Of a stretch of DNA of 64,000 nucleotides, positions 10,109 to 64,000 are shown piece by piece. The stretch comes from an uncultured Thermoanaerobaculia bacterium (lineage in GTDB: Bacteria > Acidobacteriota > Thermoanaerobaculia > Multivoradales > CAZRFU01): NCBI GenBank assembly GCA_964599475.1, contig CAZRFU010000016.1:17619-81618 (forward strand). The letters are read 5' to 3'. The position numbers were made by a program, and so were the translations under genes. How positions within the stretch are numbered: the first letter of the stretch is position 1; each line of letters begins with the position of its first letter. Under the pieces are notes generated by a model that ran no database searches, was not told where the DNA came from, and saw only the letters and a program-made list of their open reading frames with translations.

Positions 10109-13072
10109 ATGGCCACCTCCCGGCAGGAAGAGCGAGCGCGCTGGTTCGTCGAGCTGTGCGACCTCGAGCTGCGGGAGCGTGACCGGGCTCTCGAGGAGAT
10201 CGCCGCGAGCGATCCCCAGCTGGCGGCCGAGGTCGAAAGGCTGCTCCGCCTCGATCGGCAATCGAACGGGCCGATCGAAGCCCTGCGCGAGGAACTTGGA
10301 CCGGCCCTGCACTCGGCGTTTTCCGAACTGGAGGTGGCAGACCTTGCGCCGCCGGAACGGCTCGGCCCGTGGCGCCTGGGCGAAAGACTCGGTGCGGGCG
10401 GCATGGGCGAGGTCTGGGCCGCCGAACGCGCCGATGCCGGCTTTGCCCAGCGCGCTGCCATCAAGCTGGTCCGCTCGAACATGGCGAGCGAGGAGGTGGT
10501 GCGCCGCTTCGCCATCGAACGCCGGGCTCTCGCACGGCTCGAACATCCCGGCATCGCCCGGCTGCTCGACGGCGGTGTCGCTCCCGATGGTCGCCCGTGG
10601 TTCGCCATGGAGCGGGTCGACGGCATCGCGATCACGACCTTCGCCGACACCAACGCACTCGACCTCGGGTCGCGATTGCGACTCTTCCTCGCCGTCATCG
10701 AGTCCGTCGCCTTTGCTCACCAGGCGCTGGTGGTCCATCGCGACCTCAAGCCCTCGAACATCCTGGTGACCGCGGCCGGCGCGCCCAAAGTCCTGGACTT
10801 CGGCCTGGCCAAGCTGCTCGACCCGGCGGAAGGCAACCAGGACCAGCCGGAGCTCACGCACACCAACCTGCTGGCGCTGACCCCGGCTTACGCCGCTCCA
10901 GAGCAATTCCTCGGCGAGCCGACCACCACCGCAACCGACGTCTACGCCCTGGGCGCGGTTCTGTTCGAGCTCCTCACCGGGCAATTGCCGCACCAGCGGC
11001 GAAGCCCTTCGCTCGCCGTGCTGCTCGAAGGGCTCGAGCGCGAGACCCTCGAGCGCCCTTCTCAGCGCCTCAGGCGTTCGGCTGCCAGCGAACGCCCGGA
11101 TCGAGCCGCCAGGCTGCTCGAGGGAGACATCGACACCATCGTGCTGCAGGCTCTCGCCCGCGAACCGGCCCGCCGCTACCCAACCGTGGCGGCGCTCGGC
11201 GCGGACATCCGCGCCCACCTCGAAGGGCGGCCGATCGCGGCACGGCCGGCCTCGGCCTTCTACCTCTTCTCCAAGTTCCTCGGGCGGCACCGAGCGGCGG
11301 CGATCGCTGCGCTGACCGTGGTGTCGGCCCTGAGCGTCAGCCTGATCGTCTCGTTGCAGCAGACTGCGGTCGCTCGCGCCGCCCTCGCCACGGCACAGAG
11401 CGAGGCCCGGCGCGCCGAGAGGGTCAAGGACTTCCTAGTGTCCGTGTTCGAACAGGCCGACCCAACCCACACCCAAGGAGCCGACGTGCCGGCGCGACAG
11501 ATCCTCGCCGAGGGCGCGGCCCAGCTGAGGACCAACCTCGCCGACGAGCCCGAGGTCCGCGCCGAGCTCTACGACACCGTCGCGCAGATCCAGACCAGCC
11601 TGGGATTGCTCGAAGAGGGGCTGGCCAACGCCGAAGCCGGCGCCGCAGAGCGCAAGCGGCAGTTCGGTGACAGCTCGCGCGAGTACGCCCGCAGCCGGGT
11701 GACGGTGGGCCGGGCCAAGCTGCAGCAGGCCCAGTTCGCTGGCGCGCTGGAGGACTTCGACCATGCCCTATCGGTGTTCGAAGCCAGGGTGGATACCCGC
11801 TCGCTCGACTTCGCGAAGGCACTCTCCGGTCGGGCCGAGGCCCGTCTGATGCTTGGCGACCCGGAGCAGGCGCGCACCGATCAGCTCGCCGCCAATGCGA
11901 TCTATGCCGCGGCCCTCGGGCCTGAGGATCGGGAAACCCTCGGCCAGCTCTCGAATCTCGCCGTGATCGAAACCCGGTCCGGAACCGTCCTCGAGGCCGC
12001 GCGGATCTTCCGCCAGGTGCTGGCCGGCCTCGAACGCGTCGAGCCCCCGGACTCGGCACGTGTGCTCGATGTCGTCCTCAATCTCGCCACCGCCCTCGAC
12101 ACCGCCGGCCAGAGCACAGAGGCCTTGGCGCTGTTCGAACGCGTCGTCGCCGGTCGCCGGAGGATCTACGGGGACCAACACCCCCTGCTTGCCGAAGCGC
12201 TGGTGATCGCCGGGCTCAGGATGTCGCGAGCCGGCCGTGGCGACGACGCACTTCGAGCGCTCGACGAGGCCCGCGCGATCTACGCACCGCTCGATCACCC
12301 GGAGCTCGGTACCGTCGACAACTTCAGCGGCCTGACCTACGCCGACCTGGGGCGGTTCGCCGAAGCCGAGGCGGCGTTCGCGGCAGCGTCGGCTCGGTTC
12401 TCACGGGACCTCGGCCCCGCGCACGTGATGACGGTTTCCGCCAACGCCAATCGGGCCAACGTGGTGAGTGAGCTCGGTCGCGAGGACGAGGCAGTCGAGC
12501 TGTTCGCCGAGGCGGTCGCCCAGCTGCGTGTGCTCCAGCAGCTCGACAACCCGAGGCTGTTGCGCATGCGACTGAACTGGGGAGCGGCGCTGCGCCGCGC
12601 CGGACGCTTTGCCGAAGCGCGGTCGGTGCTGGAAGCCGCGATGGCGGCCGCGCGCGAGCAGTTCGGAGGCGACCATCTGCGCATTGCCGAGGGCTCGGTC
12701 GAGCTCGCCCGCCTCGAGCTGGCTGCGAGAACGTCCACCGCTCCCGAGGTCGCTGCCTCACTGCTCGCCGAGGCGGAGCGGATCGCCGAGAACAACCCGC
12801 CCAACGCCGCCTTGGCCCGCAATCTGGCGGCAGCGAGGGCGGAACTGCGGGAGGCAAACGGTTCCTCGGCACCCATCACGGCCCCGACCACCCTGCCATC
12901 GACCCCGCTCGAACCCGTCCGAGAAGATCAGGCCATTGTCGAGGCTGGGGGACGGGCTCTACCATCTCCTGGCGTGCGGCGCGATCGAGGTGGAGATCAG
13001 CTCCGGCTCGGTGTCCGCGGTAGACGTCTTCGCCGACCGGCTGCGATTCGAGCTGCTGGATCTGCTGCGTGA
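10109..13072 (+). CDS. Ser/Thr protein kinase with one transmembrane segment and a C-terminal TPR array (3' end uncertain)
   Basis: ATG 10109 (MATSRQEERARWF). LGAGGMGEVW, AIKL, HRDLKPSNILV, DFGLAKL and APE motifs. TM segment AAAIAALTVVSALSVSLIVSL, then TPR repeats. The last ~60 aa are low-complexity and overlap an out-of-frame DGFESGDTSAWS tail. Confidence 0.85.
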   Translation: MATSRQEERARWFVELCDLELRERDRALEEIAASDPQLAAEVERLLRLDRQSNGPIEALREELGPALHSAFSELEVADLAPPERLGPWRLGERLGAGGMGEVWAAERADAGFAQRAAIKLVRSNMASEEVVRRFAIERRALARLEHPGIARLLDGGVAPDGRPWFAMERVDGIAITTFADTNALDLGSRLRLFLAVIESVAFAHQALVVHRDLKPSNILVTAAGAPKVLDFGLAKLLDPAEGNQDQPELTHTNLLALTPAYAAPEQFLGEPTTTATDVYALGAVLFELLTGQLPHQRRSPSLAVLLEGLERETLERPSQRLRRSAASERPDRAARLLEGDIDTIVLQALAREPARRYPTVAALGADIRAHLEGRPIAARPASAFYLFSKFLGRHRAAAIAALTVVSALSVSLIVSLQQTAVARAALATAQSEARRAERVKDFLVSVFEQADPTHTQGADVPARQILAEGAAQLRTNLADEPEVRAELYDTVAQIQTSLGLLEEGLANAEAGAAERKRQFGDSSREYARSRVTVGRAKLQQAQFAGALEDFDHALSVFEARVDTRSLDFAKALSGRAEARLMLGDPEQARTDQLAANAIYAAALGPEDRETLGQLSNLAVIETRSGTVLEAARIFRQVLAGLERVEPPDSARVLDVVLNLATALDTAGQSTEALALFERVVAGRRRIYGDQHPLLAEALVIAGLRMSRAGRGDDALRALDEARAIYAPLDHPELGTVDNFSGLTYADLGRFAEAEAAFAAASARFSRDLGPAHVMTVSANANRANVVSELGREDEAVELFAEAVAQLRVLQQLDNPRLLRMRLNWGAALRRAGRFAEARSVLEAAMAAAREQFGGDHLRIAEGSVELARLELAARTSTAPEVAASLLAEAERIAENNPPNAALARNLAAARAELREANGSSAPITAPTTLPSTPLEPVREDQAIVEAGGRALPSPGVRRDRGGDQLRLGVRGRRLRRPAAIRAAGSAA

Positions 13073-13256: not shown

Positions 13257-13856
13257 TTGGGGTGCGGCTGGAGGATTCTCGTGGAAGAGTGGTGGTATTC
13301 ATGGATCGCACTGCCCGGGCTGATCTTCCTTGCCCGTACCACTGATGTCGGCCTGTCGACCCTGCGTATCCTGTTCATCGGCCAGGGCCGTCGCGGTCTG
13401 GCTGCCGCCACCGGGTTCTTCGAGGCGATCATCTGGCTGACGGTGGTGTCGCAGACCTTCAAGCACCTCGACAACCCGCTGGCGATCATCGCGTACGGCG
13501 GAGGCTTCGCCATGGGCAACGTCGTGGGGATGATGCTCGAAGGCAAGCTTCGACTGGGAGTCCAGGTCGCCCGGATCATCGGCGCCCGGGATCCGACGCT
13601 GTTGCAGGATTCGCTGAGGGCCCTCGACATCGGCTTCACCAGACTCGAGGGTCACGGCGCTCAGGGGCCCGTCTGGGTACTGTTTACGGTCGTGCGTCGG
13701 CGCGACGTGGCACGCCTGCTCGAGGCCGTCGAACGCGTCGCTCCCCAGGCCTTCGTGTCGATCGAGGACGTCCGACGGGTCGACCACGGTGTTTTCCCGC
13801 ACCCACCGATAGCGACCGAATGGCCGGGCTGGCGGCTGCTACGCAAGGCGCGCTGA
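13257..13856 (+). CDS. UPF0316 / DUF2179-domain membrane protein
   Basis: Collinear with the UPF0316 family: ...TLRILFIGQG..., IAYGGGFAMGNVVGMMLEGKLRLG, and a C-terminal DUF2179-like FVSIEDVRRV. The start is TTG 13257 or GTG 13281. Confidence 0.8.
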   Translation: MGCGWRILVEEWWYSWIALPGLIFLARTTDVGLSTLRILFIGQGRRGLAAATGFFEAIIWLTVVSQTFKHLDNPLAIIAYGGGFAMGNVVGMMLEGKLRLGVQVARIIGARDPTLLQDSLRALDIGFTRLEGHGAQGPVWVLFTVVRRRDVARLLEAVERVAPQAFVSIEDVRRVDHGVFPHPPIATEWPGWRLLRKAR

Positions 13857-54574: not shown

Positions 54575-57500
54575 TCACACCCACTCGGCGCACAGCAGTT
54601 CCGCCTGGGCCAGCACCGTCTTGACCGCTTGGTCCTGGAGATCCGGCGGGTAGCCCCAACGATTGAGGATGCGTTTGACCATCACCCGCATGCGTGCGCG
54701 GGCGCTTTCGCGGACGGTCCAGTCGATGGTGGCGCTCTTCCTCACCTGGGTGATCAGCTCGGCGGCGATCGCGCGCAACTTCTCGTCACCCATCGCCTGC
54801 ACCGCGCTGTCGTTGGTGGCGAGCGCGTCGTAGAAGGCGATCTCGTCGTCGCTGAGACCGAGCGCTTCGCCGCGTTTCCCGGCGGCTTCGAGGTCCTTGG
54901 CGAGCTTGATCAGCTCTTCGATGACTTCCATCGTCGAGATCGCGCGGTTGTGGTACTTGTTCAGCGTTTCCTTGAGCTTTTCGCTGAAGACCTGGCTCTC
55001 GACCAAGTTGCGCTTGCCGCGCACCTTGAGCTCGTCTTCGAGCAGCTTGCGCAGGAGCTCGGCGGCGACGTTCTTGTGCTGCAGGCCGCGGACCTCGGCG
55101 AGGAACTGGTCGCTCAAGATCGAGATGTCGGGTTTCTGCAGACCGGCGGCGGTGAACACGTCGATCACTTGGCCGTCGGTGGTGATCGCCTTGCTCACCA
55201 ACTGGCGGATCGCCGCGTCGATCTGTTCGGGGGTCTTGCCGCTCCCTGAGCCACCCTTGGCGAAGGCCGCTTGCAGCGCCTGGAAGAACGACACGTCGTC
55301 GCGGATCGTCGTCGCCTCGTCGGTTGCCGCCGCGAGCGCGAAGGCACGCGAGAGCTCCATCACCACCCTGGCCCACCGTTGTTGACCGTCCGGCTGCGCC
55401 AGGATGTGCTCGCGGCCGGCGGGAATCAACGCGAGGCGTTCGCTCGGCGAGCCGCTGATCCAGCGGCTCCAATCGAAGCCGTTCAGCATCGAGCAGGCGA
55501 CCTCGTGCTTCTCGAGCATCACCGCAATCGCGGCAGCCGTGTCGAAGGTCGGATCACCCTTGCCGCCGCTTTCGGTGTAGGTCGCCAGTGCCCGTTTGAG
55601 CTGATCCGCGAGCCCGAGGTAGTCGACCACCAGGCCGCCGGGCTTGTCGCGAAACACCCGATTCACTCGTGCGATCGCCTGCATCAGGCCGTGGCCGTGC
55701 ATCGGCTTGTCGACGTACATGGTGTGCAGACACGGCGCATCGAAGCCGGTCAGCCACATGTCGCGCACGATCACGATGCGGAAGGGATCTTTGGCGTCTT
55801 TGAAGCGCGTCGCCATCCGCCGCCGACGGTCTTTGCTGCGGATGTGCGGTTGCCACGCAGGGCCGTCGTCGGCGCTGCCGGTCATCACCACCTTGACCAC
55901 ACAGCTGCGGTCCTTTTCGGCCTCGGCATCGTCGCCGACACTCGCCCATTCGGGGCGAAGCGCGATCAGCGCGTCGTAGAGGTCGACGCAGATGCGCCGG
56001 CTCATGCACACCACCATCGCCTTGCCGTCCATCGCCTCGAGGCGCTTCTCGAAGTGCGCCACCAAGTCCGCCGCGATCAACGCGATGCGTTTCGGGTCGC
56101 CGACCAAGGCTTCGAGCGCCGCCCACTTGCTCTTGAGCTTCTCGCGGTGGGTCGGCTCTTCGCCCTCGGTGATCTCGTCAAACTCGTCGTCGAGCTTGGG
56201 GACCTCGGCGGCGTTGAGGCTGAGCTTCGAGATCCGGCTTTCGTAGTAGATCGGCACCGTCGCCTGATCCGCCACCGCTCGCTGGATGTCGTAGATCGAG
56301 ATGTAGTCGCCGAACACCACCCGCGTGTTGGCGTCGGCGAGCTCGATCGGGGTGCCGGTGAAGCCGATGTAGCAGGCGTTCGGCAGCGCGTCGCGCAGGT
56401 TGCTCGCAAAGCCGTACGACAACGCGCCGGTCTTGGGGTTGACCTTGGCGCCGAAGCCGTATTGGCTGCGGTGTGCTTCATCGGCGATCACCACGATGTT
56501 CTGCCGCGCACTCAGCACCGGCATGGCTTCGCCCTGCTCCGGCAGGAACTTGTGAATGGTGGTGAAGACCACGCCGCCGCTCGCGACCGTCAGGAGCTCG
56601 CGCAGCTGCTCACGGCTGCCGGCCTGCACCGGCGTCTGCCCGAGCACGTCGGCGCAGCGCTGGAACTGGCCGAAGAGCTGGTCGTCGAGGTCGTTGCGGT
56701 CGGTCAACACCACCAGCGTCGGGTTCTGCATCACCGGGTGGCGTACCACTCGTGCGGCGAAGAAGAGCATCGAAAAGCTCTTGCCGCTGCCCTGGGTGTG
56801 CCACACCACCCCGGCGCGGCGGTCGCCCGGCTGGCCGCCGCGCATCCGCCCGGCCCAATAGGTGCCCGGCGTTTCCTTCGCCTCGTCGGCTCGCGCCAAC
56901 CCACTCGCCCGCACCGTCTCCTCGACCGCGGCGTTGACCGCGTGGAACTGGTGGTAGCCGGCGATGATCTTGTGCAGCGCCCCCGAGTCCGGATCCTCCT
57001 CGAACACGATGAAGTGCTGCAGCAGCTCGAGGAAACGCCGCTGGTCGAACACTCCGCGGATCAACACCTCGAGCTCGAGCGCATTCGCCGGCGCGTCGCC
57101 CTCGCCGTCGACCGTGCGCCAGACCTTGAACCACTCCTGGTTCGCCGTGAGCGACCCCATCCGCGCCTGCAGTCCGTCACTCACCACCAACACCGCGTTG
57201 TACTGCAACAGCGACGGAATTTCGGCCTTGTAGGTCTGCACCTGCGCGTAGGCGCTCCAGATCGTCGCGTTTTCATCCGCCGCGTTCTTGAGCTCGATCA
57301 CGCCGAGCGGCAGCCCGTTGACGAACACCACCAGATCCGGCCGGCGGCTGTGCTGGCCCTCGATCACCGTGAACTGGTTCACCACCAGCCAGTCGTTGGC
57401 GGCGGAATCGGTGAAGTCGACCAGCCGCACGTGGTCGCCGGCGATCGACCCGTCCAGGCGGCGGTATTCCACCTGCACCCCGTTGCGCAGCAGCTTGTGG

Positions 57501-57763
57501 AAGGCACGGTTGGTCTGGATCAGCGACGGCGTGGCGATCCGCACCACCCGGCGCAGGGCATCCTCGCGAGCGTCCGCAGGGATCGTTGGGTTGAGCCGCG
57601 CAATAGCGTCCCGCAGCCGGCCGGCGAGCAAGACGTCGCCAAACGAATCCCTCTCCGCCGCCGGTTCGCCCGGCGCCAGGTGTGGCCCGTGGCCGACGGC
57701 GTAGCCGAGACCAGCAAACCAGTCGAGGGCGGCGGATTCGACGATGGATTCGTCGAGACTCAT
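54575..57763 (-). CDS. hsdR: Type I restriction enzyme R subunit
   Basis: PD-(D/E)xK nuclease region ([19 protein letters not shown]), SF2 motor motifs ([12 protein letters not shown]-like IADEAHRSQ) and a DUF3387-like C-terminus. 1062 aa. Confidence 0.95.
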
Positions 57764-57766
57764 CGG

Positions 57767-58219
57767 CTAGTCCCACACATACCGCTCGTCGAACTCGATG
57801 CCATACTTCTTCAGGAGGCGGCGGTACTCCTCTTGGAACGAGATCTTGCGATGATGCTGCGCCTGGCCGGCGAGGTATTTCTCGAGAGCAGCGCGATGGG
57901 AAGGACTGAGCGAAAACGCTCCGTAGCCGCTCTGCCAGTGAAAGTCCTGCGAGCCTGGGGCCTTGGATTTGAGCCACTTCGTCGATCCGGTCTTGATGAC
58001 CTGCACCAGGTCGGCCAGCGCCACCGTTCTCGGGTGCGCGACGAGGAGGTGGATGTGGTCCGCCACCGATCCCGCCGCCAGCAGCGTGCCCTGGTGGTTC
58101 AGGATGATGCCGCCGATGTAAGCGTGGAGCTCGTCGCGGATGTCGTCAGCCAGGCGCGGTTCGCGGTTCTTGGTCGAAAAGACCAAATGGACGAGGATCT
58201 GCGCGAGGGACTGTGGCAT
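57767..58219 (-). mobile_element. Y1 HUH transposase of the IS200 / REP-associated (RAYT) type
   Basis: ATG 58219 (MPQSLAQILVHLVFSTKNREP), HUH motif HIHLLV and a Tyr-containing WQSGYGAFS. Flanked by REP-like hairpin elements. Its stop lies 3 nt from the hsdR ATG. Confidence 0.85.
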
Positions 58220-58300
58220 GGCAAGCAAGCGCTCCGGCGTTTTCGGCCGAGTCTATCCGTCCCGACGGGCGCGGGTCCGCAAGTTGGCGATGGTCGCGCT

Positions 58301-58533
58301 CCGGGGCCCCAACGGGGCCCAATGAGATAGCCCAGGGCAACGCCCTGGGTAGGCAAGCCCCCGTCCCTTCCCAAGCCCTGAAAGGGCGAAACATCCCTCC
58401 GCGACGATCCTGCGCCGCAACCGCCCCGGAGTTCCGCCCTTTCAGGGCTCGGAACCAATGGGGGGTGCCGCGGTACCCAGGGTGTCGCTTCGCTCTACCC
58501 TGGGCTATCTCATCTCGCCCCTTTGGGGCTTCG
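58301..58533. repeat. Head-to-head pair of REP-like elements
   Basis: The forward unit (58301-58397) contains GGCCCCAACGGGGCCCAATGAGATAGCCCAGGGCAACGCCCTGGGT...GCCCTGAAAGGGCGAAAC. The inverted variant unit is at 58428-58533. Each has three GC-rich hairpins. Confidence 0.85.
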
Positions 58534-58687
58534 GATCGGCAGCCCGGCACCGGCGGGGCACCAGTGGATCGCCCCAACGACCGGCCCGCGATGCAGCACC
58601 CCGCCGTCGGGTCCCCGTGGCCCCAACCGGCACAGGTGGATCGCCCCAACGCCCGCCAGTGGCACGGCACCGCACGGATGCTCGGCT

Positions 58688-58784
58688 CCGGGGCCCCAAC
58701 GGGGCCCAATGAGATAGCCCAGGGCAACGCCCTGGGTTGGGCAAGCCGGTCCCATTCCCGAGCCCTGAAAGGGCGAAACATCCC
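58688..58784. repeat. REP-like element (forward unit, second copy)
   Basis: Nearly identical to 58301-58397 and 60300-60396. Shares a 25-nt 5' extension (GGCACCGCACGGATGCTCGGCTCCG) with the 60.3-kb copy. Confidence 0.85.
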
Positions 58785-58832
58785 AGGCCGACCCGGGTCC
58801 ACCGTCCGCGCGCGATCCACCGGCCCCACGGC

Positions 58833-60125
58833 CTACCCCGGATACGCCGTGGCCAACGCCCGCAAACCCAAAAAGCACACGCCGACGCCACCAACCGCCG
58901 CCACGCCGATCGCCGCCCTTGCATGGCGCCGCAACAAGCCCCATCGGCTCGCCCCGCCAACCGCCAAGGCACACGCCGGGCCGATGGCGGGTAAGACCAG
59001 CCGCCCCTGGGGCTGCCAATCCGAGCTGACCATGTACACCGCCAGCAGCACCAGCGCCGCCCCGATCCCGGACACCGCGGCGATCGCGACCACACCACGC
59101 TCCCGCCACGTGGCCCACACCCCGCCGACGATCGCCGCAGTCGGCAGCAGGAACCATGCGTAGGCGGCCACCGGCAAGTGAACGTTGAACCACCCGAGCT
59201 TGGCCCAGGTGCCGAGCCACAGGGTGACCATCCACCCCGGCTCGGTGATCAACGCGACCGCGGGCCCACCGTGCAACTTCCAGCTCGGCGGGACCGCATG
59301 CCCGAATGGGATGCCACGTGTCGCCTGAAACGCCAGAAGCCCCGCCAGCAGCGAGCTCCACAGTCCAACTCCCGCAGCGGCGACGCTGCGGCGCATCCGG
59401 GCGACACCGATCACCACCAGCGGCGCGAACAAGAAGGCCGCGGTCAATTTGGCCCACAGCGCCACTCCCGCGACGACGGCGGCAAGCAAGTACAGGCGAG
59501 TCGACCGGGTTTCCCCCGCACGCAAGAGCAGGGCAAAGCACACGGTCGAGAGGGCGATGGTGGCGGCGTCGTTGCTGAAGGTAGCGAACGAAAACACCAA
59601 CTGGGGCACCAGCAGGAACACCAGGAACACCGGCACCACCTCGACCGGCCTCCGGCCGGCCTGCCTCGACACCACTGCACACCCCCACAGCGCCGGCACG
59701 AACACCACCGCCCAGGCGACGTTCACCAACCGGGGCGCCCACCACCCCCGCCGGGGTTCCCCGTCGACATAGGGTTTGGGTGGCTGACTGAAATCGAAAT
59801 CCGCCGATCGGCGCAATGCCGGCAGCTCCGAATCCCCTCCCGCCACGCGGAGCGCCGCCGCCGCAGCGAGATAGGCAAGCGGCGGTTGGTGCAGCTCGTA
59901 GCTCACCTCGCCGGGTAGGGCAGGGACAACCGGCCCGCTCCCGGCGCGCGCCACCTCGCGCACGTATTCGAGATGCGCCGCCTCGTCCGGAGCTTCGCCG
60001 AGCGGCGTGACCCATGAATACGCCAGCGCCAGCACGACGAACGCAACACCGCCGAACGTTGCGAGCACTCGGAGTGGGCGCTCCGAGCTGGTGGTGGGTC
60101 TGGCGTCCGCTTGGTTCGGGGCCAT
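58833..60125 (-). CDS. Polytopic membrane protein (DUF2142 / GT-C glycosyltransferase-like)
   Basis: 430 aa and at least 10 TM segments. N-terminal loop motif PLGEAPDEAAHLEYV, as in DUF2142/ArnT-like proteins. High GC. Bracketed by REP clusters. Confidence 0.65.
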   Translation of the reverse strand: MAPNQADARPTTSSERPLRVLATFGGVAFVVLALAYSWVTPLGEAPDEAAHLEYVREVARAGSGPVVPALPGEVSYELHQPPLAYLAAAAALRVAGGDSELPALRRSADFDFSQPPKPYVDGEPRRGWWAPRLVNVAWAVVFVPALWGCAVVSRQAGRRPVEVVPVFLVFLLVPQLVFSFATFSNDAATIALSTVCFALLLRAGETRSTRLYLLAAVVAGVALWAKLTAAFLFAPLVVIGVARMRRSVAAAGVGLWSSLLAGLLAFQATRGIPFGHAVPPSWKLHGGPAVALITEPGWMVTLWLGTWAKLGWFNVHLPVAAYAWFLLPTAAIVGGVWATWRERGVVAIAAVSGIGAALVLLAVYMVSSDWQPQGRLVLPAIGPACALAVGGASRWGLLRRHARAAIGVAAVGGVGVCFLGLRALATAYPG

Positions 60126-60273
60126 GGTCGCGGGTTGCCTTTATGCAGCCAAGTGGTTTGTCGCCAGAAACATACATTGGCCTCCGGGTGGCAGGCTGCG
60201 CTACCGCCTAAACAAGCTCACTCAGGCCTTGCGTCGCTCGTGCAGGTCTTTGACGCCTTGTTGGAGGGCAGGC

Positions 60274-60508
60274 TCGGCACCGCACGGATGCTCGGCTCCG
60301 TGGCCCCAACGGGGCCCAATGAGATAGCCCAGGGCAACGCCCTGGGTGTCGGGCAAGCCCACCGACTCCCCGAGCCCTGAAAGGGCGAAACCTCCCGCGA
60401 CGGTTCGCCCCGCCCCCTCGGAATTCCGCCCGTTCAGGGCTCCGGACCTCCAGGGGTGCCGCTGTACCCAGGGTGTCGCTTCGCTCTACCCTGGGCTGTC
60501 TCATCTCG
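60274..60508. repeat. Head-to-head pair of REP-like elements (third locus)
   Basis: Forward unit at 60300-60396 with the 5' extension from 60274. The inverted variant unit at 60420-60508 is truncated where it abuts the hsdR stub. Confidence 0.85.
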
Positions 60509-60515
60509 TGAGCTG

Positions 60516-60903
60516 GGTTCACCACCAACCAGTCGTTGGCGGCGGGATTGGTGAAGTCGACCAGCCGCACGTGGTCGCCGGCGATCGACCCGTCCGGCCG
60601 GCGGTATTCCACCTCCACGCCGTTGCGCAGCAGCTTGTGGAAGGCACGGTTGGTCTGGATCAGCGACGGCGTACCGATCCGCACCACTCGGCGCAGGGCA
60701 TCCTCGCGAGCGTCCGCAGGGATCGTTGGGTTGAGCCGCGCAATAGCGTCCCGCAGCCGGCCGACGAGCAACACCTCGCTGAACGAATCGCGCTCCGCCT
60801 CCGGTTCGCCGGGGGCGAGGTGAGGCCCGTGGGCGACGGCGTAGCCGAGACCGGCAAACCAGTCGAGGGCGGCGGATTCGACGATGGATTCGTTCAAGCT
60901 CAT
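60516..60903 (-). pseudogene. hsdR: 5' stub of an hsdR gene (first ~129 codons)
   Basis: Aligns gap-free with 57376-57763 at a constant offset of 3140 nt, with about 93% identity by manual count. The frame leaves hsdR sequence after DWLVVN and reads into the REP element. Confidence 0.85.
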
Positions 60904-62786
60904 TCGGCGGTTGACGTCTGGATGGGGCCGATCATCGTGGCTACCTGACCAACACCCTCGTCCGCCACGGCAGGAACGGCTGCTGGTGGCTCCGCGGCAA
61001 AGAACTTCTCCACCTCCTTGACTAGAGGTGCAAACCCGACAAAGGCATCATTCAGCGCCTGGCCGGAGAGCCCGCACACGTACCTTGCTAGCTTCCCTTT
61101 CGCGAAGGGCTTGAGTTGTCTAGTCAACAGCAAGAGTTCGTCCTTGCTAGCGTTCTTCGACCGACAGTAGTTCTCGAACGTGTCATCAAGTGCGGTGAAC
61201 TTGTTCAAGGCAACGGCTTCGGATCGCTCGATGAGCCACCCTTTCTGCTCGGCGTACCTCCAGACCTCGATGGGGAAGAGTTCTTCCAACGCTATCGGCA
61301 GCAGGAGGCCTTTTCTTGCTATTGCCACCAGAGCATGGGGCTTGTACGCCCCGAGGAGCAAGGCCTTGATTCTATGCCTTCCATTTTCGCGGAGGAACGC
61401 TTGATTCGAACTCTTGACACGGTCGTTGTTCACCACCGCGCTTTTTGCCTCGCGGCCCGCATCATCGTCGTCGAATAAGCCTAGTGCAAGATGCGAAGTT
61501 CGGCTGTGTGCCCAAGAAATGAGCATGTCCTTAACCCAGGGGGCTCCGGCCTGGTCTTCGCTTCGTACAGTCGCCCGTTCCAGGACAGTGGGGGCCAACA
61601 GCTCCAGGGCCCTCGTGAAGACCCGAGCATCGGATGTACCTTCGACGAAGAGAGCAGGGCTAGCGATGTGGTTGGTCCTTTGAAGGATCGCGAGCGCTCG
61701 CTCCCGACTCTCGACGGCCTCGGCAATCATCGGGGCAACGACCGGCATGAGGCCGACGTGTTCGTCAAGTTCATGCATCTCGTTTGAGGCCAGCGTTTTG
61801 ACCTGAGTGGCACCGTCCTCGCCACTGCCAGAGACGAGGAAGGGAGTCACTGTAGGTGAGGATCTGGCCAGCGAATAGAAAGCTGGCGAGTGCGTGGTAG
61901 CGAAAATCTGGATCTCCTTGCTGTAGGCGACGCACTCGCTCGCAAGTTCGGCCGCCTTGAGCATTTCAAGATTGTTCTCAGGCTCCTCGAAGCCCCAAAT
62001 CGTCTGGACCTGCGGACTACCCTTGACTCGCCGTGTTCGCGACTGCTGGGCTAGGTAGTGCAGGAGGATCGGAATGTGGCGCGCCTTGACTCCGTCGCCC
62101 CGGAGGCCCAGCGGCACTCCGAGCGGGCCGTCCGATTGGAACTCAAGCCGCGAGAACAGCTCGCGAAGGTCGGCGGGTAGCTGGATCGTGCTCTTGATGC
62201 CAAGCTTGGCTTCGATCTCAGCAAGGGCGGCCTGCGTCTTCTCGTTGATGGTGGAGGTGAAGCCGCCAGAAGCCGCGCGAATGTCCGCGGCGACCGTGCC
62301 GACGAGGACATCGTGAAGGCCCCGAAGTAGTGTCTGGAAGTAGTCGCTGCCTTTCACGGCAGGTACGTACTCGAACCGCACGGAGTTGAGGAATGCCGGA
62401 ACCTTTGATCGCGGCTTGAGTTGGCTCCCGTCGAGGTGTCGAAGCTCGTTTCCAGGCTCATGGTGCCCGCCAGAACGCCACACCTTTCGCCAGAGGATCT
62501 CGGACGCGTCGTAGGAGGGGGGGAGCCTCATAGTTAGAGTTACACGAACCTCTTTGGCCTTGTTCGACGGGGTCCTCGCGTGTTTGCTGAAGTCGCGGTC
62601 AAACACGAAGGGGCTCGCGGCGGCAGTGCCGTTGAAGAACAAGTCGAGGGCACGAAGGATGTTCGATTTGCCGACATCGTTCAGGCCTACGAATAGATTG
62701 AGCCGGTTGGTCCGGAAGTCCTCGTTGAGGATGGAGCGGTAGTTCTGAATCCGGACAGACGTGATCTGCATTCCGTCGACCGCCAT
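60900..62786 (-). CDS. OLD-family-like ABC ATPase + Toprim nuclease embedded in the Type I R-M operon
   Basis: ATG 62786 lies 5 nt after the hsdS TAA, with GAGGAG upstream. Walker A GLNDVGKSN, Walker B IWGFEEPENNLE, TTHSP, and a Toprim-like FVEGTSD plus FDDDDAG. Its TGA overlaps the ATG of the hsdR stub. Lower GC than the flanks. Confidence 0.75.
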   Translation of the reverse strand: MAVDGMQITSVRIQNYRSILNEDFRTNRLNLFVGLNDVGKSNILRALDLFFNGTAAASPFVFDRDFSKHARTPSNKAKEVRVTLTMRLPPSYDASEILWRKVWRSGGHHEPGNELRHLDGSQLKPRSKVPAFLNSVRFEYVPAVKGSDYFQTLLRGLHDVLVGTVAADIRAASGGFTSTINEKTQAALAEIEAKLGIKSTIQLPADLRELFSRLEFQSDGPLGVPLGLRGDGVKARHIPILLHYLAQQSRTRRVKGSPQVQTIWGFEEPENNLEMLKAAELASECVAYSKEIQIFATTHSPAFYSLARSSPTVTPFLVSGSGEDGATQVKTLASNEMHELDEHVGLMPVVAPMIAEAVESRERALAILQRTNHIASPALFVEGTSDARVFTRALELLAPTVLERATVRSEDQAGAPWVKDMLISWAHSRTSHLALGLFDDDDAGREAKSAVVNNDRVKSSNQAFLRENGRHRIKALLLGAYKPHALVAIARKGLLLPIALEELFPIEVWRYAEQKGWLIERSEAVALNKFTALDDTFENYCRSKNASKDELLLLTRQLKPFAKGKLARYVCGLSGQALNDAFVGFAPLVKEVEKFFAAEPPAAVPAVADEGVGQVATMIGPIQTSTAE

Positions 62787-62791
62787 TCTGG

Positions 62792-64000
62792 TTACTCCTC
62801 GAAGAAGGCTCTTCCACCAAGTAGTTCTGGCAACAAGGCTTCGCGCTGTCCGGCGAGAAGGTGACCTTCGGCCGCACGGCTCTCTGCCATGGCCAACAGG
62901 GGGCTTACCCTGTCGGTGAATGCGTGGGCCAAAGCGGTCGGTGGAATCAGGCACGGCAGGGCGAAGGCATCTTCGGGCCTAACGCGCTGATGGCTCCCCG
63001 TCGTGCCAGTCACGAGTGAGGCATAGGCGGTTGAGAACGGTTGGCTTGTGAAGAGCGAATAGAGAAACTCACTCGAAGCGCTAGTGGCTGGCTCGACCAC
63101 GATGAATTCGGTCGAGCAGACGGACGGGCGAGAACCGTGGAGCTTGGCAGGGAACCACACGCGAGGGATGTGAGGGTTGAGCTTGGACAACAGCACGGCG
63201 CCTTGGGGAACCGCGAACTTGTTGCTTCGGATGGCTGCCCCAAGCTCTACCTTCGGTTTCCGGCCATCGTCGAAGGCAGGGAGGCTGTAGTGGTCGAACT
63301 GCTCGCCCGGGCACAGGCCTGGGTTCAACGAGGCCTTTCCAACGGTCGCCAACTCGGAAAGGGGGCCGGTTCTCCACCCGCGTGGAATCCGCCCGAGGTC
63401 GGAGTCTTGGAAGGAGTCGGGGAAGAGGGCGGCGGTTTCGGGGTCGAGGCCGGGGGGGTGGCGGCCGTCGAGTTTGGCGCGGACGGGGTCGAAGTCGACG
63501 AACCAGCTCTGGAAGAGCGCCCGCGCCATGGCCTCGAGGGTGGCGTTCATGCGGCGGTTGAGCTCGATCTTGTCGTCGAGGGCGCCGAGGGTCTCCGCGA
63601 TCAGCCTCTGATGACCGATGGGCGGCACAGTGATCTTTAGTCGGCGTTGGTCGGTAAGGCTCAGGTAGGGGGCCATGTCCGTTGAGGCCTTCATCCCGGA
63701 GAGCTGCTCGCTGAACTCGCGCCCGCAGGCCCAGTAGCGCAGGAACCCGCTGTCCAGACGATCAAGGTCGCGACTTCGCCAGTAGCTCAGGTGGGGCGAA
63801 TAGACGAAGGGAGGCATTCGTGGAGTAACGAACGAGGTTCGACCAGTGCTGTTGCCTTTCGTCGTGATGATCGTGTCGCCGACGCGGGACATCTTCGGTC
63901 GCACCTTTTCGAAGAGGTGCTCGTGGAAATGCTCAACCCCAGAGAAGTCGATGTGGCTGTCAGTGACGTGGCCGGCACGAAGGAAGATTGGACCGTTGCC
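62792..64000 (-). CDS. hsdS: Type I restriction enzyme S (specificity) subunit, 5' end off-window
   Basis: The frame is open to base 64000. Central conserved region PPIGHQRLIAETLGALDDKIELNRRMNATLEAMARALFQSWFVDFDPV and a matching C-terminal conserved helix, separating two target-recognition domains. Confidence 0.9.
   Translation of the reverse strand, partial: GNGPIFLRAGHVTDSHIDFSGVEHFHEHLFEKVRPKMSRVGDTIITTKGNSTGRTSFVTPRMPPFVYSPHLSYWRSRDLDRLDSGFLRYWACGREFSEQLSGMKASTDMAPYLSLTDQRRLKITVPPIGHQRLIAETLGALDDKIELNRRMNATLEAMARALFQSWFVDFDPVRAKLDGRHPPGLDPETAALFPDSFQDSDLGRIPRGWRTGPLSELATVGKASLNPGLCPGEQFDHYSLPAFDDGRKPKVELGAAIRSNKFAVPQGAVLLSKLNPHIPRVWFPAKLHGSRPSVCSTEFIVVEPATSASSEFLYSLFTSQPFSTAYASLVTGTTGSHQRVRPEDAFALPCLIPPTALAHAFTDRVSPLLAMAESRAAEGHLLAGQREALLPELLGGRAFFEE

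Follow-up and report, generated by a model that had tools for sequence, protein, structure and literature searches.

Among domesticated transposases that have non-coding 'offspring' of their own, the textbook example is that of the REP-associated tyrosine transposases (RAYTs) of bacteria and their repetitive extragenic palindromes (REPs). We describe here a locus of similar build in a stretch of 64,000 nucleotides (64 kb; the window) from an uncultured Thermoanaerobaculia bacterium of the Acidobacteriota (contig CAZRFU010000016.1), where a gene for a 150-aa enzyme of the Y1/HUH type adjoins an array of repeat units, each formed by three hairpins. The initial annotation, made from the sequence alone, had taken the locus for a REP–RAYT system. 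We think it likely that the locus is REPtron-like, that is, an IS200-related and probably domesticated Y1/HUH endonuclease of single-stranded DNA (ssDNA), belonging to subclass 1.2 of the TnpAY1 proteins, together with an array of its cognate repeat.

One of the closest described systems is that of the REPs of E. coli, which assemble into bacterial interspersed mosaic elements (BIMEs) and are served by the nuclease TnpA_REP (Nunvar 2010; Ton-Hoang 2012; Messing 2012, PDB 4ER8). As in that system, a single Y1/HUH gene stands, in the loci compared here, beside or between inverted hairpin repeats, two repeat variants alternate in arrays in the manner of the Y and Z REPs of BIMEs, and most copies of the repeat are dispersed, intergenic and away from the gene. 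In contrast, the unit is about 100 nt long with three hairpins instead of a single hairpin of 20–40 nt, the GT[AG]G (or CGTC) tag of canonical REPs is absent from every hairpin foot, and the repeat is conserved across phyla, whereas REPs are species-specific. The REPIN–RAYT systems of Pseudomonas (Bertels & Rainey 2011; Bertels et al. 2017) have in common with this one the dominance of an inverted doublet that can be folded into one long hairpin, the position of the gene at the doublet spacer, as proposed for RAYT genes with respect to REPINs, and a gene that, in each of its contexts, seems to be single-copy and retained by vertical descent. Here, however, the doublet arms are each a composite of three hairpins, and the enzyme of subclass 1.2 falls outside Bertels' RAYT groups (Quentin et al. 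2018, PMC6006769).

The insertion sequences (ISs) of the IS200/IS605 family, such as IS608 and ISDra2, which have miniature derivatives (PATEs), provide the TnpA proteins that are closest in sequence and fold, with the same HUH, Tyr and Gln catalytic residues. Moreover, hairpins 1 and 3 of the unit have the same orientation and similar adjoining sequences, which recalls the left-end and right-end (LE/RE) hairpins bound by a TnpA dimer. The differences from these ISs lie in the flanking units, which are inverted and not same-strand LE/RE hairpins, in the lack of a tnpB partner, the neighbours in the window being the repeat array and hsdR, in the conserved short sequences found 3' of the hairpins on the strand with GAA loops, in an extra conserved C-terminal tail of about 30 aa, and in the fact that contig-level look-ups gave no sign of multiple identical copies. 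Because of its inverted flanks and the lack of tnpB, the system falls outside the structural definition of an IS200/IS605 element.

The TnpAY1 proteins of subclass 1.2 are defined by the motifs DH[IV]H, WQ and Y-x3-Q-x2-HH, a length of about 148 aa and a C-terminal domain of about 30 aa (Quentin et al. 2018, PMC6006769). In Table 1 of that work they are low-copy proteins without IS features, marked 'REP: no' and found mostly in Cyanobacteria and Bacteroidetes, with 1.7 copies per genome and 36% identity. The enzyme of the window agrees with them in the key motifs, length and C-terminal domain. It differs in its tight link to a repeat family and in the abundance of its relatives in Verrucomicrobiota, Planctomycetota and other phyla. 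A repeat family for an enzyme subclass reported without any appears to be new, and it fills a gap in the classification of Y1 proteins.

Taken as a whole, the system looks functionally like a REPtron or a REPIN–RAYT pair, yet it does not pass the protein tests for RAYTs or the canonical definition of a REP. Its organisation into inverted doublets with a short spacer and alternating arrays is that of REPINs and BIMEs; the intergenic location of canonical REPs is also found, but not their tagged palindrome of 20–40 nt. From the initial proposal of a REP–RAYT system there remains a dispersed hairpin family that is tied to a Y1 gene (in all nine lineages described below), while the missing tag and the conservation across phyla speak against it.

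A three-hairpin repeat family linked to a Y1/HUH gene

The five hairpin units of the initial annotation, three forward and two inverted, are all in the sequence and score 26.6–76.3 bits with a covariance model (R1). This model was trained on 96 sequences, 93 from other genomes and three being the forward units of the window (A1, A2 and A3), which themselves score 71.0–76.3 bits. A repeat finder combined with a reading of positions 57000–61200 gave closely similar limits, with forward units at about 58300–58397, 58687–58784 and 60297–60394 and inverted ones at about 58428–58538 and 60420–60508. The copies are located between genes, within 58.3–60.5 kb, and diverge by 4–33% among themselves (repeat finder).

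Folding as ssDNA confirmed the three short GC-rich hairpins reported for the forward units and showed three such hairpins, with 3-nt loops, in every unit; those of A1 span 58304–58320, 58331–58349 and 58375–58387. The inverted units carry a longer middle hairpin, CCCAGGGTAGAGCGAAGCGACACCCTGGG. Forward and inverted partners, described before as head-to-head pairs about 30 nt apart, are separated by 24–30 nt and face each other with their third hairpins, which gives two doublets in the window. The 16-nt motif GTGGATCGCCCCAACG was also found in both of the places where it had been noted, each copy within a 27-nt direct repeat (D5, 89% identical), and it recurs between the doublets of a related locus (L121, see below). 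The 20-mer GAGCCCTGAAAGGGCGAAAC, with at most three mismatches, occurs five times in the 64 kb, always at this locus, against 0.00 expected from shuffles; the word ATGAGATAGCCCAGGG also occurs five times, all at the locus, against 0.36 expected. A covariance search with the filters off gave no degenerate further copy at E<1 in the rest of the window.

For comparison, loci from other genomes and metagenomes were fetched, designated here by L and a number. Species-representative genomes were scanned with an exact pattern that demanded only hairpin 2 and hairpin 3, and at least 120 matches were obtained, from about eleven phyla by record titles. From the names of the records, the matches listed include what we take to be Verrucomicrobiota, Planctomycetota, Bacteroidota (with complete genomes of Segatella copri), Acidobacteriota, Desulfobacterota, Pseudomonadota, Hydrogenedentota, Sumerlaeota, Binatota, Lentisphaerota and Bacillota. 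The unit, which forms its three hairpins from one strand, is conserved nearly base for base across these phyla, a conservation that is inflated for hairpins 2 and 3 because the loci were gathered by the exact pattern.

Hairpin 1 was outside the pattern, and yet 92 of 100 units have at the same place a stem of 4 bp or longer with no mismatch, with many different stem sequences and with loops that are mostly GAA (53), AAC (16) or AAA (8). In an alignment of 96 units all five of its base pairs covary and 98% of the cells pair; there are 93 cells with double changes, against 24.5 in shuffles, and partners slid along the sequence pair in only 15–61%. A profile search gave 358 distinct units, and in these the pairs of hairpins 2 and 3 have changed in a compensatory way as well (for example, A-T to G-C in 17). 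Hairpins 1 and 3 are one module used twice, consisting of a 5-bp GC stem, a GAA, AAC or AAA triloop and a 3' tail R-N-N-A-Y-A, and in many units of Bacteroidota they are identical. When the 8-nt tails that follow hairpins 1 and 3 of one unit are compared, 4.08 of the 8 positions match, as opposed to 2.77 with shuffled partners (z = 10.5). Hairpin 2, CCCAGGG-loop-CCCTGGG, stands between these two hairpins. On its left side the unit has a sharp boundary, at the foot of hairpin 1, across many different flanks.

In total, 408 near-full units were collected across 243 loci. Inverted doublets with the third hairpins facing make up 121 of the 173 adjacent pairs, and their gaps have a median of 23 nt. 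Solo copies number 109. In loci of low GC content only 6 of 49 units lie inside open reading frames (ORFs) of at least 150 aa, while such ORFs span 76% of the bases. Most units sit away from any Y1 gene, and among the loci gathered by the pattern there are about ten repeat loci per Y1 locus. Head-to-tail tandem arrays, unlike the inverted doublets, were seen at L013 5999–6120 and in L129, L148, L182 and L214 (period of 267–300 nt); in tandem units such as those of L013 one hairpin serves both as the third of a unit and as the first of the next. A single unit in L003, whose record is titled MAG (metagenome-assembled genome): Klebsiella pneumoniae, does not fit in with the hosts of the other units; this assignment may be a binning error.

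The link between gene and repeat was studied in two sets of loci. The protein-anchored set comprises nine lineages fetched by the exact sequence of the Y1 protein alone, hence unbiased toward the repeat. Units touch the Y1 gene in all nine. A forward unit ends 0–3 nt before the ATG in L244, L247–249, L250–255, L256, L257/258 and L259/260, and 104 nt upstream of Y1 in L245/246; in L121–123 the nearest upstream unit is inverted and 76 nt off, and in L261 there is no upstream unit. On the other side, an inverted unit or array begins about 3–50 nt past the Y1 stop in eight of the nine lineages, hsdR being found there instead in L121–123. Within 6–8 kb the units cluster at Y1; L121 alone departs from this, with one unit 5.4 kb upstream of the gene and half a unit behind hsdR.

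The repeat-anchored set comprises 240 loci fetched by the repeat pattern alone (120 from genomes, 120 from metagenomes). A full Y1 homologue, 34–77% identical, is present in 20 of them (8 genome and 12 metagenome loci). If L121–123 are added, 23 full-length Y1 genes are available. In 16 of these the stop is followed within 42 nt by an inverted unit, and in 11 the start is preceded within 43 nt by a forward one. In eight of the other Y1 genes the inverted unit, as the near arm of a doublet, stands 66–136 nt upstream, and the window has this same arrangement at 72 nt. Since Y1 is bracketed by inverted units in these relatives and the units form doublets elsewhere, the gene occupies the position of the doublet spacer. 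The locus L121, the nearest relative, with a Y1 protein 95% identical to that of the window, has 7–8 alternating long-loop and short-loop B>A< doublets that fill 2.3 kb upstream of Y1 in the manner of a BIME. Each Y1 protein that was looked up stays in one conserved context across samples and assemblies, except for P0039, found at two R-M (restriction–modification) loci of one sample.

While the enzyme drifts to 34–51% identity, the repeat remains nearly invariant from Segatella copri to Planctomycetota, so that the recognition of DNA by the protein must be unusually constrained. This disparity across phyla appears to be new. For biochemical work, it offers one defined substrate across many hosts, abundant gut bacteria included.

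Class and proposed role of the enzyme

The 150-aa HUH/Y1 gene next to the array, with its HIHLLV and SGYGAFS stretches, was rightly recognised in the initial annotation and matches Pfam Y1_Tnp; an in-frame TTG at 58228 would extend the protein to 153 aa. Exact look-ups of the two forms gave no record. In 33 homologues 57 of the 150 columns are invariant, among them Y115, Q119, H122 and H123, and because the HUH, Tyr and Gln residues are all invariant the active site looks intact. Proteins of the family number at least 7827 at E<=1e-10, with an identical 150-aa protein in the database; the best 120 relatives are 71–100% identical, nearly all of 150 aa, and come from Verrucomicrobiota and Planctomycetota.

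The label of RAYT-type transposase, on the other hand, could not be kept. The protein scores 20.4 bits (E = 3.6e-4) with the NCBIfam model REP_Tyr_transpos (NF047646), far under the cut-off of 80, and 57.1 bits with the IS200 model (NF033573), marginally over the cut-off of 55. A sequence search of the PDB found the Deinococcus ISDra2 TnpA and not the E. coli RAYT. For an AlphaFold (AF2) model with a predicted local distance difference test (pLDDT) score of 82, Foldseek placed IS200/IS605 TnpA proteins at ranks 1–29 (best E = 5.7e-9, ISDra2/IS608), and the E. coli RAYT 4ER8 came 30th, with E = 4.1e-5 and 13% identity. The tyrosine motif reads Y115-LAG-Q119-AQ-H122-H123 and not the Y-x3-N-P of RAYTs.

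The motifs of subclass 1.2 are all present (D54-H-I-H57, W95-Q96 and Y115-x3-Q119-x2-H122-H123), and the tail of 27 aa (residues 124–150) is conserved. The protein thus matches subclass 1.2, an assignment made by motif and not by the published hidden Markov model. The class 3 Y1 proteins, which go with atypical secondary structures in Planctomycetes and Acidobacteria, were discarded as a candidate; their motifs (NHVH, W[TA], YV..EQ) differ. Carriage of the family on plasmids amounts to two records, both Bacteroidota megaplasmids, and no match was obtained in phages; plasmid or phage carriage was for this reason rejected as the cause of the spread across phyla.

In the REPtron-like interpretation, a dimer of the Y1 protein, like its IS200/IS605 relatives, would bind a unit at its two like hairpins, in ssDNA supplied for example by the lagging-strand template. 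It would cut beside the hairpins through its HUH/Tyr site and rejoin the ends, so that units and doublets could be copied, moved or deleted in trans and the Y1 gene itself would stay single-copy. In the window, Y1 may have lost its downstream unit or never had one, with an operon-style fusion to hsdR. The data show the anatomy of the repeat, its covariation, its linkage to the gene, its dispersal and its conservation across phyla; binding, cleavage, mobilisation and choice of strand are what we infer.

Several observations weigh against this interpretation. In the window, the Y1 gene is not bracketed by inverted units, and the units do not lie around it, as had been proposed: all five are upstream, and hsdR begins 3 nt past the Y1 stop. 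The five copies sit, moreover, at one locus of the 64 kb. The profiles, the PDB search and the fold place the protein closer to the transposases of IS200 than to proven REP nucleases. Known REP–RAYT pairs show no such near identity of the repeat from phylum to phylum; it could reflect another conserved partner or a function as RNA, and part of the unit coincides with an Rfam candidate small RNA (sRNA). The exact search pattern partly imposes the conservation of hairpins 2 and 3 in the repeat-anchored loci. Finally, the proposal of the initial annotation that the system is active or recently active finds no support in the window copies, with their divergence of 4–33%, and no clean pair of filled and empty insertion sites was obtained in an all-against-all megablast of 256 loci. 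The 20 candidates from this comparison are unrelated indels, with the exception of one half unit of 76 nt (hairpins 2 and 1). It is present at L185 1308–1385 and absent from L223 at about 860–871, with flanks 94–98% identical and GGGC/GGC microhomology at the junction; as proof of mobility or of element ends it was set aside as too weak.

The first alternative is an ordinary IS, in which a forward unit, Y1 and an inverted unit (about 650 nt) would form an autonomous IS200/IS605-type transposon with inverted-repeat ends of about 95 nt. The doublets would then be deletion derivatives resembling miniature inverted-repeat transposable elements (MITEs), and the window would hold a decayed, immobilised copy. 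This agrees with the marginal pass of the IS200 model, with the proximity to the TnpA of ISDra2 and IS608, with the intact catalytic residues and with the exact position of the gene in the 23-nt doublet spacer, units being 0–6 nt from the ORF. The initial annotation had itself held that its view would give way to a protein clustering with canonical IS200/IS605 TnpA and bearing its own IS ends. The protein does cluster with them; the flanks, in contrast, are dispersed REP-like units and not private IS ends. The ends of IS200/IS605 elements are same-strand hairpins and not inverted repeats, and in the repeat-anchored loci there are about ten units for each Y1 gene. The single conserved context of each protein looked up (P0039 being the sole exception), the near absence of the family from plasmids and its absence from phages, and the low copy number and low identity of the subclass (Quentin et al. 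2018) also speak against a transposon of this kind, which we consider rather unlikely.

The window locus and its type I restriction–modification context

The features of the locus are collected in Table 1. In gene orientation, the order is hsdS, an AAA ATPase gene, the hsdR fragment, a B> A< doublet, the DUF2142 gene, a single A< unit, the spacer with the 16-mers, a second B> A< doublet, 72 nt, Y1, 3 nt and the full-length hsdR. Unit A1, inverted with respect to the Y1 gene, is the one that stands 72 nt upstream of its ATG, and with B1 it makes an inverted doublet with third hairpins face to face and 30 nt between them.

Table 1. Positions in the window of the Y1/HUH gene, the repeat units and the neighbouring features.
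Feature	Positions	Strand	Basis
Full-length hsdR	54575-57763	-	Pfam domains; ATG 3 nt past Y1 stop, junction also in L121
Y1/HUH gene, 150 aa from ATG	57767-58219	-	Pfam Y1_Tnp, 76 bits
Putative catalytic Y115 of Y115-x3-Q119-x2-H122-H123	57875-57877	-	Alignment to ISDra2 TnpA, region of the catalytic Tyr
HUH motif codons H55-I56-H57, within ADHIHLL	58049-58057	-	Sequence; D54, H55, H57 invariant in 33 homologues
Unit A1, short-loop type	58299-58399	+	76.3 bits (covariance model), ssDNA fold
Unit B1, long-loop type, GCGAAGC in middle hairpin	58424-58536	-	58.5 bits; inverted repeats I1, I6
Array spacer with two 16-mer copies (58564-58579, 58636-58651)	58557-58655	+	Direct repeat D5
Unit A2, B partner absent	58686-58786	+	75.0 bits; alignment of units
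DUF2142/PMT_2-like membrane protein gene, inside array	58833-60125	-	Pfam DUF2142, 42.5 bits
Unit A3	60296-60398	+	71.0 bits
Unit B2, truncated, without hairpin 1	60416-60508	-	26.6 bits; alignment of units; sequence
hsdR 5' fragment, codons 1 to ~130	60509-60903	-	Repeat D1; Pfam HSDR_N, 63.5 bits

The initial annotation had named the Y1 transposase as the likely agent of a rearrangement of hsdR. The hsdR fragment is 93% identical to 57376–57763, at the start of the full-length gene, and 90.5% identical to L121; its ATG shares bases with the stop of the ATPase gene that precedes it. Unit B2 breaks at the 3' foot of the expected hairpin 1, where the fragment is joined directly. Likewise, A2 resembles A1 up to 10 nt past hairpin 3, and it is there that the DUF2142 segment has its left junction, while A3 and A2 have in common about 30 nt of 5' array spacer. 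Junctions at such landmarks of the unit fit an involvement of the repeats in the rearrangement.

At the same time, the block formed by array, Y1 and hsdR is collinear with L121 to the exact hsdR stop (93.7% over 4086 nt), and the junction of Y1 stop and hsdR ATG, TAGCCGATG, is found at 57764–57769 in the window and at 10451–10459 in L121. This synteny and the 7% divergence of the hsdR copies fit acquisition of the block by recombination at least as well as a local event caused by the transposase, and the role of the Y1 transposase as agent of the rearrangement is plausible but unproven.

The DUF2142 gene (glycosyltransferase-like) stands in the place of a long-loop unit and the greater part of a spacer. 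Neither it nor the ATPase gene has a counterpart in the syntenic L121. The ATPase (684 aa, window 60900–62954, minus strand) stands between hsdS and the hsdR fragment, and its N-terminus matches ATPases of the AriA, GajA, OLD and AbiL type; it looks like defence cargo within the R-M operon. As listed, its ORF has about 160 nt in common with hsdS, which makes a true start further downstream probable. The hsdR stop of L121 is followed after 10 nt by half a unit (hairpins 2 and 1; 13652–13707, minus strand), which places Y1 and hsdR together between units; about nine tandem CCCCGAT heptamers come next, at 13720–13790.

The type I R-M context is not limited to the window. In six of the nine protein-anchored lineages (window/L121, L244, L247/L248, L250–L255, L257/L258 and L259) Y1 is inside a type I R-M operon and shares the strand of the hsd genes; directly downstream of it comes hsdS in five of these lineages and hsdR in that of the window and L121. 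In a seventh lineage it adjoins an Eco57I-type methylase and a helicase, and in the two others it is elsewhere. Other inserted genes of defence type (Abi_2, TIR_2, SLFN/AlbA_2, an NTase/HEPN-like pair and PIN) are frequently its neighbours. As background, hsdM or hsdR was present in 3 of 220 loci with the repeat only, and the short loci of the distant Y1 homologues (34–51% identical) contained no hsd genes. The lineages concerned are 71–95% identical, and the pattern could in part go back to a single old insertion that travelled with R-M islands. Literature searches (subscription journals not covered) gave no description of the association of Y1 with R-M genes or of the repeat itself, and the association appears to be new. 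Its recurrence suggests a link between an HUH endonuclease and the make-up of defence islands.

A further explanation takes Y1 and the repeats for a working component of type I R-M and defence islands. They would act as a machine that cuts and joins ssDNA to insert, swap or delete genes among hsdM, hsdS and hsdR, or, alternatively, would couple the expression of hsdR to the processing of ssDNA hairpins. This idea draws on the six lineages in R-M operons and the seventh beside Eco57I and helicase genes, on the 3-nt gap between Y1 and hsdR, on the DUF2142 gene within the array, on the hsdR fragment that ends at a hairpin foot and on the joint position of Y1 and hsdR between units in L121. PADLOC returned no defence-system model for the Y1 protein or the DUF2142 protein. 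We give this explanation little credence.

The Acido-Lenti-1 motif, and DNA or RNA as active form

An Rfam scan of the whole window gave no match at the gathering threshold. In a permissive scan, RF01687 (Acido-Lenti-1) matches hairpins 2 and 1 of every unit of the window, on the opposite strand, with 24.7–27.0 bits against a gathering threshold of 37. That threshold is passed by twelve units (37.6–55.3 bits) in 18 fetched loci from Acidobacteriota, Lentisphaerota and one Verrucomicrobiota MAG. Weak permissive matches to mir-3085, mir-671, Hammerhead_3 and frameshift elements were discarded as chance matches to the long inverted repeat.

Acido-Lenti-1 was described as a candidate sRNA of unknown function (Weinberg et al. 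2010), the main text of that work making no link to a Y1 gene or to a function at the DNA level, and there is almost no later literature on it. The two hairpins and linker of the Rfam motif are hairpin 2 and hairpin 1 of the unit; the Rfam model differs in being on the opposite strand and in lacking hairpin 3 and the spacer. We therefore read Acido-Lenti-1 as two-thirds of the three-hairpin DNA repeat unit, an identification that appears to be new and that gives an origin to an orphan motif.

The next alternative follows from this motif. The units would be sRNA genes or cis-elements (Acido-Lenti-1 and its relatives), or terminator or stabiliser hairpins, and the proximity of Y1 would be secondary, for example a control through its untranslated region (UTR). 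Besides the Rfam matches, the covariation is equally compatible with RNA, and many metagenome copies come directly behind terminator-like hairpins. As the forward unit abuts the Y1 start codon in most protein-anchored lineages, it must belong there to the mRNA leader, and hairpin 3 contains a Shine-Dalgarno-like GAAAGGG; by analogy with IS200, a translational control of Y1 by this hairpin is possible.

However, inverted doublets and alternating arrays dominate, so that no single transcribed strand fits, and the Rfam model spans two of the three conserved hairpins on the strand opposite the GAA loops. On the GAA strand, and not on the Rfam strand, G.T pairs exceed A.C pairs (98 against 14). This excess favours the GAA strand, but nearly all of these pairs are at the loop-closing position, and for this reason we do not take the substrate strand as settled. 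C-GAA-G triloops, such as the one embedded in GCGAAGC, are reportedly very stable DNA mini-hairpins (Hirao et al.); triloops of this kind stabilise DNA and are atypical of RNA loops. The systematic link to the gene of an ssDNA endonuclease also counts against the RNA alternative, which in our opinion is very unlikely. The palindromic doublets, the alternating arrays, the GAA triloops and the ssDNA endonuclease as partner are hints of DNA rather than RNA as the active form.

That the array is a passive scar, amplified locally by slippage or homologous recombination in an acquired R-M island with Y1 as a dead passenger, is hardly credible: the array lengths of 2.5 doublets in the window and 7–8 in L121 between flanks 94% identical, the non-identity of the window copies and the lack of any unit elsewhere in the 64 kb would agree with it, but the unit is found in hundreds of unrelated contexts in about eleven phyla, its left boundary at the foot of hairpin 1 is sharp across different flanks, and Y1 is strongly conserved with an intact active site.

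The arrays are crossed by long ORFs of 227–316 aa (58213–59163 on the plus strand and 58146–58829 on the minus strand in the window; 8461–9405 in L121). They are artefacts of the GC-rich repeats that public data contain as annotated genes, such as the spurious '314-aa protein' across the array of L121, and they give recurring pseudo-peptides such as AQGNALG and ALKGRN. A bidirectional terminator-like palindrome, AAAAACCCGGGGACAGTCCCCGGGTTTTTT, was also seen about 20–45 nt upstream of hairpin 1, in varied outer contexts, in the metagenome loci L124, L134, L152, L184, L193, L199, L206, L232 and others; it could form a repeat family of its own or be a neighbour favoured by the units.

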